64,000 nucleotides of DNA from Escherichia phage JP4 (PQ330092); one strand, 5' to 3'; positions 27,598-38,201 are shown, numbered from the stretch's first letter. Notes: generated by a model from the letters alone, not told the origin. Numbers and translations are program-made.

Positions 27598-27936
27598 ATG
27601 GAACAATATTTTGAATTAATAAACAAAGTATCATTTTATGTAGTATCTTTGGTTTGGGTGTATTATATGTTTTGCTACATTATTGCATTCTTCCGATACA
27701 CTACTTTATATGAACGTATCTACTATGATGCCCCAATTTCATTCTTGATGTTTTGTGCATGTACGTGGGGAATATTAGAAGTACTGATATGTGGGTATAG
27801 TACTGATGAATTAAATCTGGTATCGGTCTTGACTGGGTTTTCATTTGTTGTTATGATAGCTGCCGTTCCAGTATGGTTGTTCTTTGGACTAGTTCATCGC
27901 ATTGATATATGGCGTTCTAATATCCCTGAAAAGTAA
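27598..27936 (+). CDS. small multi-pass membrane protein, paralog family B
   Basis: 3-4 hydrophobic helices; C-terminal IWRSNIPEK. Confidence 0.55.
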   Translation: MEQYFELINKVSFYVVSLVWVYYMFCYIIAFFRYTTLYERIYYDAPISFLMFCACTWGILEVLICGYSTDELNLVSVLTGFSFVVMIAAVPVWLFFGLVHRIDIWRSNIPEK

Positions 27937-27939
27937 GGA

Positions 27940-28287
27940 TTGGTAATGATTTATTACACTAACATGTTTGCCTATGCTGTTGCTTGCATTTACATTGTTT
28001 ACTTCTTATTCGGTGGAGTACTGTGCTTCTTTAAGTACAAAACGTTGTTCAACCGAATGTACCCAAATCATCCAATTGTGGTTGTACTTTTGATTCTTTC
28101 AGTTTCTCAAATAATCGTTGAAACTACAATGGGTATCAGTAGTGTACATTATAGTTTTGGTACTATAGTAATTATTACTATGCTTATTGCATACATTTTA
28201 GTACTTGGATATGGTATCTTTGGTAATATTGGTATGAAAATGTATCATCGAATTAAAACATTACGTGATAATCTACCGGAGCGTTGA
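27940..28287 (+). CDS. small multi-pass membrane protein, paralog family B
   Basis: Hydrophobic helices; C-terminal LRDNLPER. Confidence 0.55.
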   Translation: MVMIYYTNMFAYAVACIYIVYFLFGGVLCFFKYKTLFNRMYPNHPIVVVLLILSVSQIIVETTMGISSVHYSFGTIVIITMLIAYILVLGYGIFGNIGMKMYHRIKTLRDNLPER

Positions 28288-28288
28288 T

Positions 28289-28633
28289 ATGTATAATTTG
28301 AACCTAATCTCATATATTATAACAACACTGTTTACATTCTATGCCTTTGTTGGTATAATCCTACTGTACTTTAAATTTTATAAAGTGTTTAACCGTTTCT
28401 ATCCTTCAATGGAGAATGAGTTTTTCTTTGTGTTGTACGTAGGTTACACATTAATGGCTACATGTTTCACTGTAGCCGATGGTGTCATCGGCATTAAAAC
28501 TGATTCCCCAAATGGTAGTACGCTGGTTGCATTTATTCTTACTGGATTCCTTGCAACTTATATAGCCTTCATTACAACATGGTCAGTGGTTGAATTTCTC
28601 TTGCGACTACGAAAGAATATGCCGAATCGATAG
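28289..28633 (+). CDS. small multi-pass membrane protein, paralog family B
   Basis: ATG 28289 after ggag SD (track start 28265 overlaps); C-terminal LRKNMPNR. Confidence 0.55.
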   Translation: MYNLNLISYIITTLFTFYAFVGIILLYFKFYKVFNRFYPSMENEFFFVLYVGYTLMATCFTVADGVIGIKTDSPNGSTLVAFILTGFLATYIAFITTWSVVEFLLRLRKNMPNR

Positions 28634-28642
28634 GAGACATAT

Positions 28643-28897
28643 ATGTTTGCGTTGCGTAATAAAAACACTAAAGAATTATTATGTATTGATACCGTATGGG
28701 ATTGTGCGGGGTCAACTACAGTTCTTGAAGAAGGAACTGGATATTGCGTGTTTGTTGTACATGATAGGAATGAACTCGAATTATTACTTGCTGAGTTCAA
28801 TGCTGGTGGTAATCCTAACAGTACTGAATACCCTGAGATTATCAATCCAGCACCACCAGGCTCTTATGAAATTCTACAACTGTGGGAGTTGAAGTAA
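28643..28897 (+). CDS. hypothetical protein
   Basis: 84-aa ORF with aggag SD; preferred over overlapping ORF 28590-28892. Confidence 0.5.
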   Translation: MFALRNKNTKELLCIDTVWDCAGSTTVLEEGTGYCVFVVHDRNELELLLAEFNAGGNPNSTEYPEIINPAPPGSYEILQLWELK

Positions 28898-29277
28898 TGC
28901 GTCAAATGCACAAAGTAACCGAGCTAAACAAGCGTCTGGTTAAACAATCAATGTTCGAGGATAAAGAGTCTTATTATAACTTTAAACGTGCTGTAGAGGC
29001 TGCTATCCACATTCAGAAGCTTAAAGAACGTGGTTGTATTATTCTGGAAAATGGGTCGGAAGTTGTAACGGATGACTTTAGTGTAGCGTTTGATGTTTCA
29101 CCTGACGGGACGCTATCAATGCCCCGCTTAGGAACTGGAAACATGACTGTTTGGGTTGGCTTCACTATGGGGAATGTACCTGGTACTGTGTACGTAGATG
29201 ATGCGGAATTGAAAGACAGTTTCAAAAACTTATCTTATCTTGAACCACAATACGCACATGAAATGAATTTATTTTGA
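28897..29277 (+). CDS. hypothetical protein
   Basis: ATG 28897 overlapping upstream TAA; track start 28882 overlaps upstream gene. Confidence 0.5.
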   Translation: MRQMHKVTELNKRLVKQSMFEDKESYYNFKRAVEAAIHIQKLKERGCIILENGSEVVTDDFSVAFDVSPDGTLSMPRLGTGNMTVWVGFTMGNVPGTVYVDDAELKDSFKNLSYLEPQYAHEMNLF

Positions 29278-29353
29278 GTTGACAAACACATTCCGTACTA
29301 TATAATGCTTATCAAGGGGATGAACTTCTCATCCCTACAATCGAGGAACTACC

Positions 29354-36100: not shown

Positions 36101-36447
36101 TGTTTGAAGCTTATCTTGAGTTTTTAAGGAGTAGTCCAGTTGCACATTCACTTGCAGGGATTATTCTAACAACTTATGTATCATTTTGGGTAGTTATGTT
36201 TCTAGGATGGTATTTTAAACGACAATTCTATAAACGTAATGGTGAAGATTTTATGAATTCTGTCATTAATCAATCGTTGTTTGCATCAACATTGATTGCA
36301 TGTATTGTAGCAACACTCACAGGAAAGGTACTACCAGCTTTTTCCGCAGTTTACGGCACACTTGGGATGATATGTTTAACTTTTATATTGACCATTAAAA
36401 TTTGTTGTGTTATGATTGAACTTCGAAATAAGATACCGGAGGAATGA
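36100..36447 (+). CDS. small multi-pass membrane protein, paralog family B
   Basis: Hydrophobic helices; C-terminal ELRNKIPEE. Confidence 0.55.
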   Translation: MFEAYLEFLRSSPVAHSLAGIILTTYVSFWVVMFLGWYFKRQFYKRNGEDFMNSVINQSLFASTLIACIVATLTGKVLPAFSAVYGTLGMICLTFILTIKICCVMIELRNKIPEE

Positions 36448-36782
36448 TGGAGTACTTTATTGATTTACTGCCGTGGTATATGAAAGTTAGTACCATGTAC
36501 TATATTATTAGTGCTGGATTCTACTTTCTGATGTGGTTCTTTAAACGACCAATTTCAGTATTCATCGCTGATAACATGTTGCAATTAAAATTACACGCAT
36601 GGTTTGGTATGGCGATGATTATGCCTATTATTCACTACTCAATGATTAGTAGAGGTTTCCATTCTAATGGTGAACCAATTGTATTAGTATTCTATTGGGG
36701 TTCAACTATTGCATATGTAAGTTTGTTGTTGTTCCCAGTCGTTCATAAGTTACGTGCTAAAGTTCCTGATGCGAGGTACTAA
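36444..36782 (+). CDS. small multi-pass membrane protein, paralog family B
   Basis: Hydrophobic helices; C-terminal LRAKVPDARY. Confidence 0.55.
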   Translation: MMEYFIDLLPWYMKVSTMYYIISAGFYFLMWFFKRPISVFIADNMLQLKLHAWFGMAMIMPIIHYSMISRGFHSNGEPIVLVFYWGSTIAYVSLLLFPVVHKLRAKVPDARY

Positions 36783-37096
36783 TGGATATAGTAACATTGA
36801 TTTACACGTTGTATTCATTCTATTTCATTATGTGTTGGGTTGGATTTTTATTTGTACTCAAGATGTTTGATTATGTTGAAAAACAGATAAAAGAATTTTG
36901 TATTCCTTTTATCGGTTCAACCATTATTAGTGTTTCTTGTGTGTATTTTTTGGTTTTTGATCCACCAGATAACACTGCAATGATTGACTTGATGTTACTA
37001 CCAACAACTGTTACTTTTTTATGTAGTCTGATGCCGCCGATTAGCCGTGGGCTAACCGAATTTAGACGCAATCAAAAGCGTAAACGAGGGATGTAA
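36782..37096 (+). CDS. small multi-pass membrane protein, paralog family B
   Basis: Hydrophobic helices; basic C-terminus RRNQKRKRGM. Confidence 0.5.
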   Translation: MDIVTLIYTLYSFYFIMCWVGFLFVLKMFDYVEKQIKEFCIPFIGSTIISVSCVYFLVFDPPDNTAMIDLMLLPTTVTFLCSLMPPISRGLTEFRRNQKRKRGM

Positions 37097-37464
37097 TGGA
37101 AATTGCTCTTATTATCTTAACTGCTATGCTGTTTATTAGTACTGTGGTTATAATTGGTAAATTCTTTTGTGTATCATTTTTAGAAACGGTATACGATGAA
37201 ATTTCTGATGATTATGAATTACAAGCCGGATTTTTCATTACGTATTGGCTTAGTTTATTTTGTCTAGTCATTGCTTGGATTTTACATATCTTTAAATGGG
37301 GTATGGTAGACGGTGATCCTATTATGGCAATTATTGTTCTAGTGTTTGGTATCCTTGGTGGTGCAGTGCATAATCTAATGGTTATCTGGCAAACTGTTCA
37401 ATATGTTTTGGTTCCCTATTTCGAAAAGATGCACAGTACAATTAAAAAACGTAAACGAGGTTAG
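37096..37464 (+). CDS. small multi-pass membrane protein, paralog family B
   Basis: Hydrophobic helices; basic C-terminus IKKRKRG. Confidence 0.5.
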   Translation: MEIALIILTAMLFISTVVIIGKFFCVSFLETVYDEISDDYELQAGFFITYWLSLFCLVIAWILHIFKWGMVDGDPIMAIIVLVFGILGGAVHNLMVIWQTVQYVLVPYFEKMHSTIKKRKRG

Positions 37465-37465
37465 T

Positions 37466-37828
37466 ATGAACGGGATAGAATTATCTTTCGTTGGTCAATT
37501 ACTAGTAATGGCGTATACATTTATCTTCTCACTGAATGCATTCGTGTGCATTGGGAAGTACTTCCATAAGCGACCATTATCAAATATATATGATGTAATC
37601 CAAAAGAGATATAGTCCAGCATATACTGTGTTGGGTACAGTATTCAATTTTGGTTTTATTGTATTAATAATTGGACTGTTCACATCCTCTTTGAATACAA
37701 TAACCTTCGGTCTTATGATATGTTCATTGGTATTAGCCGTAATTATATGTTGTTTAGTACTACACCTTGTGATACTATTATATATAAAGATCTCTGAAAT
37801 CCACCAACGTTTGGGTATGAGGAAATAA
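37466..37828 (+). CDS. small multi-pass membrane protein, paralog family B
   Basis: ATG 37466 after gagg SD preferred over overlapping track start 37403. Confidence 0.5.
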   Translation: MNGIELSFVGQLLVMAYTFIFSLNAFVCIGKYFHKRPLSNIYDVIQKRYSPAYTVLGTVFNFGFIVLIIGLFTSSLNTITFGLMICSLVLAVIICCLVLHLVILLYIKISEIHQRLGMRK

Positions 37829-37829
37829 T

Positions 37830-38201
37830 ATGAGTTACCGTGAGATATTTTCCATTATTTCAATTATTATGTTCAGTACTGGAACACTGGTATGGTTATT
37901 ATATTTCTTCTGTATTAATCCAGTGTATAATATGTTATGTAATATTAAATCAAGTGCCGGATATATCACTTTTATGGTCTTTATGGGATATTATTGTCTA
38001 AGCATTTTAGGTGTTGTTTTGGTTGTTATATTTGATGTGGGGCCAAATAGTGATGGTATGGAAATACATGAATTAATAACCATGTTTGGATGTATGATAC
38101 CAACAGCACTACTGTTTGTAGCTACTGGTAGTGGATTGATAAAATTATATAATTATTTAAAATCCATTCATAATTCCATTCATAATAAGCGTATGTCATA
38201 A
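37830..38201 (+). CDS. small multi-pass membrane protein, paralog family B
   Basis: Hydrophobic helices; last member of the array. Confidence 0.5.
   Translation: MSYREIFSIISIIMFSTGTLVWLLYFFCINPVYNMLCNIKSSAGYITFMVFMGYYCLSILGVVLVVIFDVGPNSDGMEIHELITMFGCMIPTALLFVATGSGLIKLYNYLKSIHNSIHNKRMS

Follow-up and report, generated by a model that had tools for sequence, protein, structure and literature searches.

The window analysed here, a stretch of 64,000 nucleotides from Escherichia phage JP4 (PQ330092), belongs to an Escherichia coli jumbo phage of the Asteriusvirus type (121Q/PBECO4/SP27-like) and carries two runs of short genes for hydrophobic proteins. The locus raises two questions: whether these genes constitute a single family, and what such a family could do for the phage.

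Gene content of the two arrays

A preliminary description of the sequence had placed three genes at 27598-28633 and eight at 35421-38201, encoding proteins of 105-125 aa. All 11 open reading frames (ORFs) are indeed present there on the plus strand (Table 1), and the likely starts, chosen from orthologue annotation (E9.1/121Q) and the positions of Shine-Dalgarno sequences, give products of 104-123 aa; for four of the genes the mechanically called ORFs begin slightly upstream. Comparison of the window with BF17 gave dN/dS values of 0.10-0.38 for ten family genes, which identifies the 3 + 8 ORFs as real genes. The gene-wide ratios of the same comparison, all < 0.4, showed no indication of positive selection.

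Table 1. Features of the two arrays and their surroundings (positions counted from the first nucleotide of the window).
Feature	Position	Strand	Description
Promoter-like site, array-1 operon	27249..27277	+	TTGACA-17-TATTCT, 10/12 consensus match; putative
93-aa soluble protein gene	27314..27595	+	phrog_37917 (unknown function); opens array-1 operon
Family member A	27598..27936	+	112 aa, three TM, tail ...WRSNIPEK; phrog_19285
Family member B	27946..28287	+	113 aa; mechanical ORF from TTG 27940
Family member C	28289..28633	+	114 aa; mechanical ORF from GTG 28265
NrdC.10-like P-loop NTPase	34583..35353	+	256 aa; phrog_1250; Pfam AAA/nSTAND matches mostly under curated cut-offs
Sigma-70-type promoter-like site, array 2	35363..35391	+	TTGACA-17-TACTAT; putative
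Family member D	35421..35762	+	113 aa; extra E-type copy
Family member E	35762..36100	+	112 aa; mechanical ORF from 35750
Family member F	36100..36447	+	115 aa, tail ...LRNKIPEE
Family member G	36444..36782	+	112 aa, tail ...LRAKVPDARY; orthogroup conserved best
Family member H	36782..37096	+	104 aa, tail ...RRNQKRKRGM; 121Q orthologue frameshifted (gp228/229)
Family member I	37096..37464	+	122 aa, tail ...IKKRKRG
Family member J	37466..37828	+	120 aa; mechanical ORF from 37403
Family member K	37830..38201	+	123 aa; final gene of array 2
Hairpin after array 2	38208..38231		10-bp stem ATCCAGTACT-ATTA-AGTACTGGAT; probable operon end

Homology beyond composition

Most member pairs share 10-25% identity, many BLASTP pairs fall below significance, and the 11 genes are divided among eight unlinked groups in PHROGs. 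Such figures would suit unrelated or spurious hydrophobic frames that are alike through composition alone. Profile searches, however, argue strongly against this. In jackhmmer searches 10 of the 11 seeds converged on one set, consisting of all 11 window members and their orthologues, and neither the reversed-sequence decoys (0/696) nor the window's remaining small TM ORFs (18700-18942, 19001-19327, 19777-20154 and 8828-9672) were recruited. Likewise, HHalign chained all ten orthogroups at 77-99% probability, as against ≤24% for decoys, and connected the orthogroup profiles of array 1 to those of array 2 at 92-95% (reversed-profile maximum 24%). With the near-invariant F and R/H columns described below, the dN/dS values and the retention of orthologues in >40 phage genomes likewise against it, likeness through composition alone becomes an extremely improbable explanation, and it was rejected.

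The 11 genes are, as judged from these alignments, one divergent and old family of ~110-aa inner-membrane proteins. The jackhmmer, conserved-column and HHalign results in combination support the initial proposal of two tandem arrays of small multi-pass membrane-protein paralogues, whose shared alignment extends beyond hydrophobicity. The adjacent copies D and E, singled out as closely similar, are 51% identical (E 1e-37).

Topology and conserved motifs

Three to four hydrophobic helices had been proposed per protein; Kyte-Doolittle scans bear out three, not four. The helices of member G are weaker, with one above the 1.6 cut-off and top-3 window scores of 1.35-1.85. An AF2 model displays three long helices (pLDDT 74). 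Averaged over 48 members, the number of K+R per region is 0.48 for the N-terminus, 3.21 for loop 1, 0.48 for loop 2 and 4.56 for the C-tail, from which the positive-inside rule predicts that the family proteins are N-out/C-in in the inner membrane. The Muenster annotation, too, carries the TMHMM remark 'N-out, C-in' on five of its eight members.

The F at the end of TM1 is the same in 47 of 48 aligned members, and R or H occupies one column near the C-terminus in all 48. The TM1-end motif reads [ILV]-[LG]-x-[FY]-F-[KC], followed by a Tyr, and the post-TM3 motif [LI]-x-x-[LIF]-[R/H]-x-[KN]-[IL]-[PK]; both lie on the cytoplasmic side, and their cores, F-[K/C] and [R/H]-x-[K/N], occur in 11/11 window members. 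The variable parts of the proteins are TM2 and the periplasmic loop. Both types of related C-terminal tail that had been described (LRxN-type or KRKRG) were recovered, (L/I)-R-x-(N/K)-(I/L/M/V)-P-x-(R/K/E) in members A, B, C, F and G and the basic KRKRG in H and I. The conserved surface is cytoplasmic and not periplasmic, contrary to the naive expectation for proteins that block entry from outside.

Genomic setting and expression signals

The promoter-like site of array 2 carries an 8-bp palindrome, AGTACTAC/GTAGTACT (35368-35389), across its spacer, an element that 121Q, BF17 and Turkey5 also keep ahead of their arrays. Successive genes of array 2 are spaced by -4 to +1 nt, so that a stop overlaps or touches the next start, and the Shine-Dalgarno sequence (GGAG/GAGG) of each gene falls within the final C-terminal codons of the preceding one, the codons of the tail doubling as the ribosome-binding site of the next gene. 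Translation of the arrays would in that case be coupled, and because of the coupling the paralogues would be made together. The hairpin that follows array 2 has an equivalent hairpin or terminator 3' of the array in 121Q, BF17, Turkey5 and Munch.

Upstream, the NrdC.10-like NTPase gene adjoins array 2 in 121Q, BF17, A4, Turkey5, RaK2, Muenster, Munch, GAP32 and one metagenomic contig, and stands directly before the array in every lineage examined. The NTPase stop is 0-10 nt from the next start in RaK2, Munch, GAP32 and the metagenomic contig, leaving no promoter-sized gap; in Asteriusvirus, the two are set apart by the array's own promoter and by a recombination junction. The same NTPase is also present in >1,200 T4-like phage records, and teqhad and PA5oct have no array beside theirs. 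Array 1 is not linked to the NTPase. The promoter-like site of the array-1 operon contains the hairpin CAGAAC-TGAT-GTTCTG in its spacer, and the stop of the 93-aa protein gene is 2 nt ahead of member A; orthologues of this protein stand before A-type members in BF17, A4 and Turkey5. The A-type copies of RaK2 (ORF280), A4 and Munch occupy a separate locus away from the NTPase-linked array, with a single copy in RaK2 and A4 and three in the window.

The neighbouring accessory genes (protein kinase, DenV, HNH nucleases and ORFans) each lie behind sigma-70-like promoters, and the PHROG annotation of the kinase is host-transcription-inhibiting. Among ten flanking ORFs screened, those annotated were the kinase, an HNH nuclease and the P-loop NTPase, with DenV annotated in relatives; no endolysin or spanin was found beside the arrays. 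Promoter consensus matches, although across the whole region no commoner than in shuffled sequence, suggest early rather than late expression, by which the arrays may be transcribed early by host RNA polymerase.

These observations bear on the earlier suggestion of a holin/antiholin function. Class I holins (lambda S105 type) are ~100-120 aa proteins with three TM, N-out/C-in topology and a cationic C-tail, an architecture that the family shares in size, helix number, orientation and basic tail. The family might then supply holin, antiholin or pinholin-like proteins that time lysis for the SAR-type endolysin of the clade, a reading that we consider very improbable. The endolysin does possess an N-terminal TM (SAR-like) domain (PMC5259590), and no T-type holin or RI antiholin has been identified in RaK2 (PMC3622015). 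However, no holin family in Pfam or NCBIfam was matched at E up to 1, and the best BFVD fold match, an actinophage holin at E 2.3, is non-significant and at noise level. The arrays also differ from class I holins in their early-type, sigma-70-type promoters and accessory-gene neighbourhood and in their distance of >300 genes from the endolysin (121Q gp207-209 and gp224-232 vs gp532). Moreover, the genes occur in 4-12 tandem copies, for which we know of no precedent among holins. A holin role is thus unlikely and the suggestion disfavoured, despite the fitting topology.

Distribution and variability of the cassettes

Searches among 1.84 billion representative proteins returned 32 clusters of the family, and the 44 phage records that contain it are all Escherichia, Klebsiella or Salmonella jumbo phages. 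As far as members were traced to their source, the family is confined to Rak2-like jumbo phages (E. coli, Salmonella, Klebsiella and Cronobacter) or similar metagenomic contigs. No match to the family was obtained in Pfam, NCBIfam or PADLOC, the best PADLOC hit being a non-significant one of a single member to PycTM (E 0.031), and no structural match was found. Nor did Pfam, NCBIfam, PHROGs or PADLOC relate the proteins to Imm or Sp, or to any family with a role in exclusion, defence or anti-defence.

The same family and locus are recognizable as GAP32 gp522-527, Muenster gp554-561 and RaK2 ORF309-316, downstream of an NrdC.10-like NTPase and of the same size and three-TM character, with 'putative membrane protein, 3 TMDs' or 'hypothetical protein' as their deposited product names. 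These entries, and the PHROGs of unknown function into which the family falls (19285, 19454, 27618, 26405, 27396, 33258 and 19046), differ from the present analysis in offering gene-by-gene annotation only, in the case of PHROGs as eight unlinked groups. No account of the genes as one family, nor of their motifs, order, coupling or cassette hypervariability, was found in the literature searched. On the genome comparisons, the family is a module linked to the NTPase and keeping its gene order throughout the clade, a feature that, like the doubling of tail codons as ribosome-binding sites and the hypervariability of the cassette, goes beyond the preliminary description.

The order E-F-G-H-I-J-K is kept, with 1:1 orthologues, across highly divergent cassettes and mostly also in RaK2. 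Member D occurs in the window and in 121Q; E9.1, BF17, A4 and Turkey5 lack it. Between A4 and the window, protein identity is 94-97% for the flanking genes as opposed to 25-66% for the seven array genes, the A4 cassette differing as a block, and DNA homology (90.5%) ends ≤2 nt from the NTPase stop codon. By these comparisons the array cassette is hypervariable between otherwise near-identical phages. Along the array, dS ranges from 0.16 to 1.5 (window vs BF17), which suggests that sub-blocks recombine. The copy number is 3-4 in Munch, 6 in GAP32, 8 in A4, 8-9 in RaK2/Muenster, 10-11 in other Asteriusvirus phages and 11-12 in the metagenomic relative, and the NTPase-linked array comprises 4-12 genes. 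PeSL-like promoter/terminator cassettes are located near the arrays, with five near-identical copies in the window.

Proposed role

With their fixed 1:1 order and translational coupling, the genes would suit independent effectors no better than a multi-subunit assembly. In the main rival explanation, which we regard as possible but not probable, the paralogues assemble, as related but distinct 3-TM subunits, into a single inner-membrane complex encoded by the phage, shaped as a ring or bundle; translational coupling would fix the order and the ratio in which they are made, and their cytoplasmic motifs may dock the upstream NTPase. Orthologues retained in order across cassettes of 25-66% identity, and largely across genera, agree with such a complex, as do the start/stop overlaps with embedded Shine-Dalgarno sequences, the cytoplasmic location of all common conserved motifs and the constant, in four lineages gapless, position of the NTPase; the block-wise difference of the A4 cassette is as expected for co-adapted subunits. 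Conversely, a complex is difficult to reconcile with a copy number that runs from 3-4 to 12 between genera, the presence or absence of D among near-identical phages, the frameshift of H in 121Q and the recombining sub-blocks. The NTPase, moreover, occurs widely in T4-like phages and without an adjoining array in teqhad and PA5oct, is parted from the array by promoter and junction in Asteriusvirus, and is unlinked to array 1. It appears doubtful that 4-12 related 3-TM proteins join during translation, in the order of the operon, to form a hetero-oligomeric machine coupled to the NTPase through the F-K and R/H-x-K motifs. Should such a machine exist, Rak2-like jumbo phages would own an ATP-driven membrane device without known counterpart, e.g. 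for transport, membrane remodelling, or the anchoring of replication or assembly.

It is less probable still that the family serves host takeover, each paralogue binding and inhibiting or re-tuning a different host inner-membrane protein (a transporter, a division or envelope-synthesis factor, a protease) in place of exclusion or defence. Consistent with this are the accessory-gene block with its host-transcription-inhibiting kinase, the constant scaffold with variable TM2 and periplasmic loop, and the purifying selection on each paralogue, as well as the fact that the separate paralogues persist in the phages of E. coli, Klebsiella and Salmonella, hosts that share conserved inner-membrane proteomes. 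However, conserved targets would not predict cassettes of 25-66% identity in phages of the same host species that are otherwise 94-97% identical, and no homology points to a target.

Superinfection exclusion or membrane conditioning is, by analogy, the most plausible reading. As a whole, the explanation that we tentatively prefer, and hold with less than even confidence, is an early, coupled family acting as an envelope-conditioning/exclusion battery at the inner membrane. The proteins would insert in the host inner membrane soon after infection, presenting a common cytoplasmic face and diversified membrane and periplasmic parts, and the paralogues could jointly protect the membrane of the infected cell from the entry of secondary DNA or from host defences that act on membranes. 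Their role would be functionally analogous, not homologous, to Imm-type superinfection exclusion in T4. Phages would swap the cassette among themselves as a hypervariable unit, with the repeated promoter/terminator cassettes on its flanks as the probable sites of exchange. Counting against this explanation are promoter matches no commoner than in shuffled sequence, the negative searches for exclusion and defence homologues, gene-wide dN/dS values that give no hint of positive selection, the cytoplasmic position of the conserved surface and the 1:1 order of the paralogues.

Comparison with known systems

Like T4 Imm and Sp, the family proteins are small, reside in the inner membrane and belong to a virulent myovirus; their genes lie among accessory genes whose promoters suggest early expression. 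T4 Imm is the product of a single gene, ~83 aa long and with two TM helices, whereas the window phage has a multigene 3-TM family with a cytoplasmic conserved face and no homology to Imm. Conceptually, the arrays are also akin to certain gene families of eukaryotic viruses, the adenovirus E3 CR1 genes and the ASFV multigene families, in which small membrane proteins are likewise encoded in tandem and vary strongly: the paralogues form a cassette that differs far more between close relatives than its flanks do. The viruses and proteins are unrelated, however, and the parallel drawn here concerns arrangement and variability, not immune evasion.

A further parallel concerns the exchange of modules. 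The repeats in the window are, like those of T4-type phages, 35-55-bp elements with a stem-loop and an early promoter that flank variable modules, albeit with a repeat sequence specific to their own phage group; the promoters of the arrays themselves carry another spacer hairpin. PeSL cassettes of T4-type phages have been reported to drive modular shuffling (PMC2839356, PMC4122927), and by analogy the PeSL-like cassettes of the window may shuffle the arrays in the same manner.

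Source genome and verification of the genes

The region 27000-39000 was matched by megablast to Escherichia jumbo phages, at 98.7% identity to SP27, 97.7% to vB_EcoM_E9.1 and 97.2% to slurp01, with partial matches to 121Q, PBECO4 and phAPEC6. These relatives belong to Asteriusvirus, within the 'Rak2-like' group of ~350-kb myoviruses. The GC content of the window is ~33%, and up to 39 kb almost every gene is on the + strand. The preliminary description had listed small membrane-protein genes in runs of three and eight, and all 11 were found (members A-C of array 1 and D-K of array 2, see table). 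With likely starts set from the annotated E9.1 and 121Q records and from Shine-Dalgarno (SD) positions, the products comprise 104-123 aa. Hydropathy scans gave three helices per protein, in agreement with the lower of the two numbers previously proposed (three to four), while a fourth was not supported; the weakest hydrophobic segments among the 11 are those of the product of 36444. The C-terminal tails read as described earlier, and the products of 35421 and 35762, reported as closely similar, share 51% identity. The dN/dS ratios (Nei-Gojobori, window versus the related phage BF17) were 0.10-0.38 across ten family genes; for comparison, the neighbouring P-loop NTPase gene gave 0.02 and four further neighbours, DenV among them, 0.10-0.30. 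It is thereby established that the family genes are real and under purifying selection.

Coordinates of the arrays and associated features (window positions unless a locus of another phage is named)
Feature	Position	Strand	Remark
Array 1 (A, B, C)	27598-28633	+	likely starts 27598, 27946, 28289
Array 2 (D to K)	35421-38201	+	likely starts 35421, 35762, 36100, 36444, 36782, 37096, 37466, 37830
NTPase gene	34583-35353	+	Pfam AAA and nSTAND matches, mostly under curated cut-offs; phrog_1250
Promoter-like TTGACA-17-TACTAT	35363-35391	+	upstream of D; also in 121Q, BF17, Turkey5
Embedded SD, array 2 junctions	35740-38201
Embedded SD, second region	27920-28300
Hairpin, 10-bp stem	38208-38231		after K
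Split H orthologue of 121Q (gp228/gp229)	L002 13033-13348		window counterpart 36782-37096
321-aa ORF	11264-12229	+	A4 counterpart annotated sigma-70-family sigma factor
220-aa ORF	38244-38906		in place of ~200-aa gene
~200-aa downstream gene, RaK2	L009 21441-22037
~200-aa downstream gene, Muenster	L004 13794-14381		annotated putative outer-membrane lipoprotein
~200-aa downstream gene, GAP32	L016 9064-9687		annotated DUF1190, LTGC lipobox
AAGGGTTGACTTCGGTCAGCCCTTTTTGCTATAAT copy	20695-20729	+	upstream of gene at 20758
AAGGGTTGACTTCGGTCAGCCCTTTTTGCTATAAT copy	26548-26582	+	upstream of kinase, 26578
AAGGGTTGACTTCGGTCAGCCCTTTTTGCTATAAT copy	31161-31195	+	upstream of DenV, 31224
AAGGGTTGACTTCGGTCAGCCCTTTTTGCTATAAT copy	33106-33140	+	upstream of gene at 33167
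AAGGGTTGACTTCGGTCAGCCCTTTTTGCTATAAT copy	34520-34554	+	upstream of NTPase, 34583
AGTACT example	35368-35389		hairpin in intergenic DNA
AGTACT example	38212-38227		hairpin in intergenic DNA
AGTACT example	58090-58105
AGTACT example	60323-60341
AGTACT example	60376-60394
Array of ~11 paralogous ORFs, ~390 aa	39382-53652	-	immediately downstream of array 2
Six adjacent ORFs, ~140 aa	1494-3981	+
Five adjacent ORFs, ~140-158 aa	7389-9672	+	two with TM
Small membrane ORFs	18700-18942, 19001-19327, 19777-20154	+	alternate with next entry
Similar-looking ORFs	19406-19765, 20157-20507 (+ strand)		hydrophobic, signal-peptide-like N-termini

Homology beyond shared hydrophobicity

Pairwise BLASTP supports only the A-B-C and D-E relationships and a few weak links, and PHROGs divides the 11 members among eight families. 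Each protein was used as a single jackhmmer seed to search every ORF of ≥70 aa in the window and in ten related loci; these 696 sequences were also included in reversed form, as decoys. The same set was reached from ten of the 11 seeds and contained all 11 window members; none of the 696 decoys was recruited, and neither were the window's other small membrane ORFs. Small transmembrane (TM) ORFs at 18.7-20.2 kb and 8.8-9.7 kb were rejected as members, the iterative searches having left them out. Smaller jackhmmer runs picked up one decoy in one run and the spurious ORF 22175-22396 in another.

HHalign comparisons between ten orthogroup profiles yielded links that connect all ten: 97-99% for A-B-C, 92-94% for A/C-E, 94-96% for A/C-F, 96% for F-G, 77-84% for F-H, 94% for I-J and 78-80% for I-K, against a maximum of 24% (mostly <2%) with reversed profiles. 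Two sub-clusters are apparent, {A,B,C,E,F,G} with R-x-K-[IL]-P tails and {H,I,J,K} with basic KRKRG-like tails, and these coincide with the two tail types distinguished previously. In the 48-member alignment a Phe ends TM1 in 47 sequences, inside [ILV]-[LG]-x-[FY]-F-[KC], followed ~10 residues later by a Tyr, and all 48 carry R/H eight residues from the C-terminus, inside [LIF]-[RH]-x-[KN]-[IL]-[PK]. The jackhmmer convergence, the HHalign links and the conserved columns all show homology, i.e. a shared alignment beyond hydrophobicity, and at the level of sequence comparison establish the 11 genes as one real protein family.

Predicted topology and structure

Averaged over 48 members, K+R residues number 0.48 (N-terminus), 3.21 (loop 1), 0.48 (loop 2) and 4.56 (C-tail). 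Read by the positive-inside rule, this distribution corresponds to an N-out/C-in topology, which agrees with the TMHMM notes for five of eight members in the record of phage Muenster and would place both conserved motifs on the cytoplasmic side; the variable regions are TM2 and the periplasmic loop. As predictions, membrane localisation, N-out/C-in topology and conserved cytoplasmic motifs are established. An AlphaFold2 model of A (pLDDT 74) contains three long helices and a short helix in loop 1, and gave no fold match below E 2.3 in BFVD or the PDB. Likewise, Pfam, NCBIfam and PADLOC scans of all 11 proteins returned noise-level matches alone; SUR7, DUF443, TRAP-gamma, Mrp subunit G and PycTM were rejected on such scores.

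The topology would suit a holin or antiholin, a role raised in the preliminary description, and the clade is without an identified holin. However, these are the only points in its favour: no holin family is matched, the SAR-type endolysin lies >300 genes from the arrays, and promoter type and neighbourhood argue against such a role, which we consider very improbable.

Predicted operon anatomy and dual-use tails

Array 2 is preceded by a promoter-like site whose spacer is spanned by an 8-bp palindrome, AGTACTAC/GTAGTACT, and is followed by a hairpin with equivalent hairpins or terminators after the array in 121Q, BF17, Turkey5 and the Salmonella phage Munch. The array 2 junctions measure, in order, -1, -1, -4, -1, -1, +1 and +1 nt. 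Ahead of array 1 stand a 93-aa ORF with a soluble product and a weaker promoter-like site, which has a spacer hairpin of its own. From these features we infer that the arrays are operons, probably transcribed early by the host RNA polymerase and translationally coupled. The window also holds an ORF whose counterpart in the related phage A4 is annotated as a sigma factor (see table). Reading the -35/-10-type promoters as early and host-transcribed needs confirming, since the phage may supply its own sigma factor.

The SD of each downstream gene is contained in the final 3-5 codons of the gene before it, as in IPEE (ATA CCG GAG GAA), KRKRG (...CGA GGG), RGDF (CGC GGA GAC) and VPDARY (...GCG AGG TAC). 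The related tails are thus dual-use, the C-terminal 'P-E'/'K-R-G' signature being partly RNA-constrained. SD embedding was rejected as the sole cause of these tails: ORF280 of Klebsiella phage RaK2 retains ...KLPER with the next annotated gene beginning ~78 nt downstream, and C retains ...NMPNR with its neighbour's SD after the C stop codon, so the tail motif is a protein feature as well.

The NTPase neighbour and the second locus

In every family-bearing lineage a ~255-aa P-loop NTPase gene, labelled NrdC.10-like in RaK2 and GAP32 annotation, immediately precedes the main array, and this adjacency is established. The NTPase stop codon is 0-10 nt from the next start in RaK2, Munch, GAP32 and a metagenomic contig, so that NTPase and array probably form one operon there; in Asteriusvirus the gap is 67 nt and carries a putative separate promoter. 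NTPase homologues occur in >1,200 phage records, mostly T4-like, and in the two such records inspected, teqhad and PA5oct, no array stands beside the NrdC.10 homologue, which was rejected as a clue to timing or function. Since the NTPase also stands without the array, the link may be functional or mere clade-wide synteny. Some homologues are deposited as 'thioredoxin', 'transcriptional regulator FleQ', 'clamp loader' or 'regulator of chromosome condensation'; these names look like propagated mis-annotations, because the sole domain signal seen is that of an AAA/nSTAND-type P-loop.

A-type genes occupy a second locus near kinase and structural genes, with a single copy in RaK2 (ORF280) and A4, one in Munch (gp514), and three in the window, 121Q, BF17 and Turkey5. 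Just downstream of the array, Klebsiella and Cronobacter phages encode a ~200-aa protein, with a further small gene intervening in GAP32; the 220-aa ORF in its place in the window is unrelated and has no family match.

Distribution and evolution of the cassette

A tblastn search with the 11 concatenated proteins matched 44 phage records, all jumbo phages (Escherichia 31, Klebsiella 9, Salmonella 4). Searched exhaustively with an HMM, 1.84 billion cluster representatives yielded 32 clusters, of 89-127 aa save a weak 237-aa match and a 56-aa fragment. Only 12 close orthologues emerged from a word-indexed search of 5.8 billion proteins, as the diffuse 48-member profile scores low, and an IMG/VR locus search with the G-orthogroup alignment returned nothing beyond 121Q and RaK2 themselves. 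Iterative HMM searches plus inspection of adjacent three-TM ORFs counted 11 members in the window, 10 in 121Q plus a frameshifted H orthologue (gp228/229), 10 in BF17, 8 in A4, 11 in Turkey5, 9 in RaK2, 8 in Muenster, 11-12 in the metagenomic contig SRR7533027, 3-4 in Munch, 6 in Cronobacter phage GAP32 and 0 in Pseudomonas phage PA5oct. Confinement of the family to the Rak2-like clade is established.

The order E-F-G-H-I-J-K is strictly kept in Asteriusvirus, even where cassettes share just 25-66% identity, and the RaK2 array reads F-F'-E-G-H-I-K plus one more; the paralogues are therefore older than the divergence of the Klebsiella phages from those of E. coli, and each one has persisted. 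The window and 121Q carry D, which E9.1, BF17, A4 and Turkey5 lack. The H orthologue of 121Q is split into two short CDS by a frameshift or sequencing error, which suggests that individual members are dispensable. Between A4 and the window, the upstream genes (184-aa ORF, 123-aa ORF, DenV, NTPase) share 94-97% protein identity and the array genes 25-66%, the DNA homology (90.5%) stopping no more than 2 nt from the stop codon of the NTPase. In CRJP21 and UE-S1 the NTPase is just ~59% identical, and the arrays ~89% and ~72%. Along the array dS (window versus BF17) ranges from 0.16 to 1.5, which indicates mosaic recombination. To judge from these comparisons, the array is a hypervariable cassette.

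Small, early inner-membrane proteins, a hypervariable cassette beside near-identical flanks and copy-number turnover lead us to favour, tentatively, an early envelope-conditioning or exclusion-type battery. The main rival is a hetero-oligomeric complex, possibly acting together with the NTPase, for which conserved order, 1:1 orthology, the inferred translational coupling and a shared cytoplasmic face can be cited; however, copy number varies, some members are dispensable and the NTPase lives independently in T4-like phages, and we regard such a complex as doubtful. Inhibition of host membrane proteins appears unlikely.

Repeated elements and other arrays in the window

The composite element AAGGGTTGACTTCGGTCAGCCCTTTTTGCTATAAT occurs in five near-identical copies, none being expected by chance, each just upstream of a gene. 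It combines a sigma-70-type promoter with a terminator-like hairpin, GGGTTGAC-TTCG-GTCAGCCC plus T-run, the two overlapping at the -35 box. The elements match across loci in A4, BF17 and Turkey5 and resemble the PeSL promoter/terminator cassettes of T4-type phages, where such cassettes are reported to mediate modular shuffling (PMC2839356, PMC4122927). The palindrome AGTACT is present 233 times, evenly spread, versus ~22 expected from base composition, and AGTACT-N(0-20)-AGTACT pairs number 17 versus 0.14 expected, some of them making hairpins.

In relatives, the counterparts of the ~390-aa ORFs carry an RCC1-like 'DNA condensation' annotation, and the copy number and intactness of this array differ between relatives. 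The runs of ~140-aa and ~140-158-aa ORFs may be further tandem paralogue arrays. By iterative searches, the membrane ORFs of 18700-20507 fall outside the family.

Significance and relation to known systems

Rak2-like jumbo phages (121Q, PBECO4, RaK2, K64-1, GAP32 and others) are under development against E. coli, Klebsiella, Salmonella and Cronobacter, and most of their genes are without assigned function. Eleven unannotated ORFs now form one family, for which a topology is predicted and an operon structure proposed, and which has signature motifs, a distribution across the clade and an NTPase as conserved neighbour; array 2 is a compact ~2.8 kb and a predicted single operon. Hypervariable cassettes often govern phage-phage or phage-host conflict, and a role in exclusion or counter-defence would affect cocktail design and host range. 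An NTPase-coupled multi-subunit machine would represent a new kind of phage membrane complex.

In the literature searched (Rak2-like phages, jumbo-phage comparative genomics, NrdC.10), the family and the NTPase function are undescribed, as are the family's motifs, coupling, conserved order, NTPase linkage and hypervariability. The genes themselves are already deposited, as 'hypothetical' or 'putative membrane protein' in the GAP32 and Muenster GenBank records and as unknown-function groups in PHROGs. Among known systems, we would rate the family as falling among the phage-encoded small inner-membrane accessory proteins.
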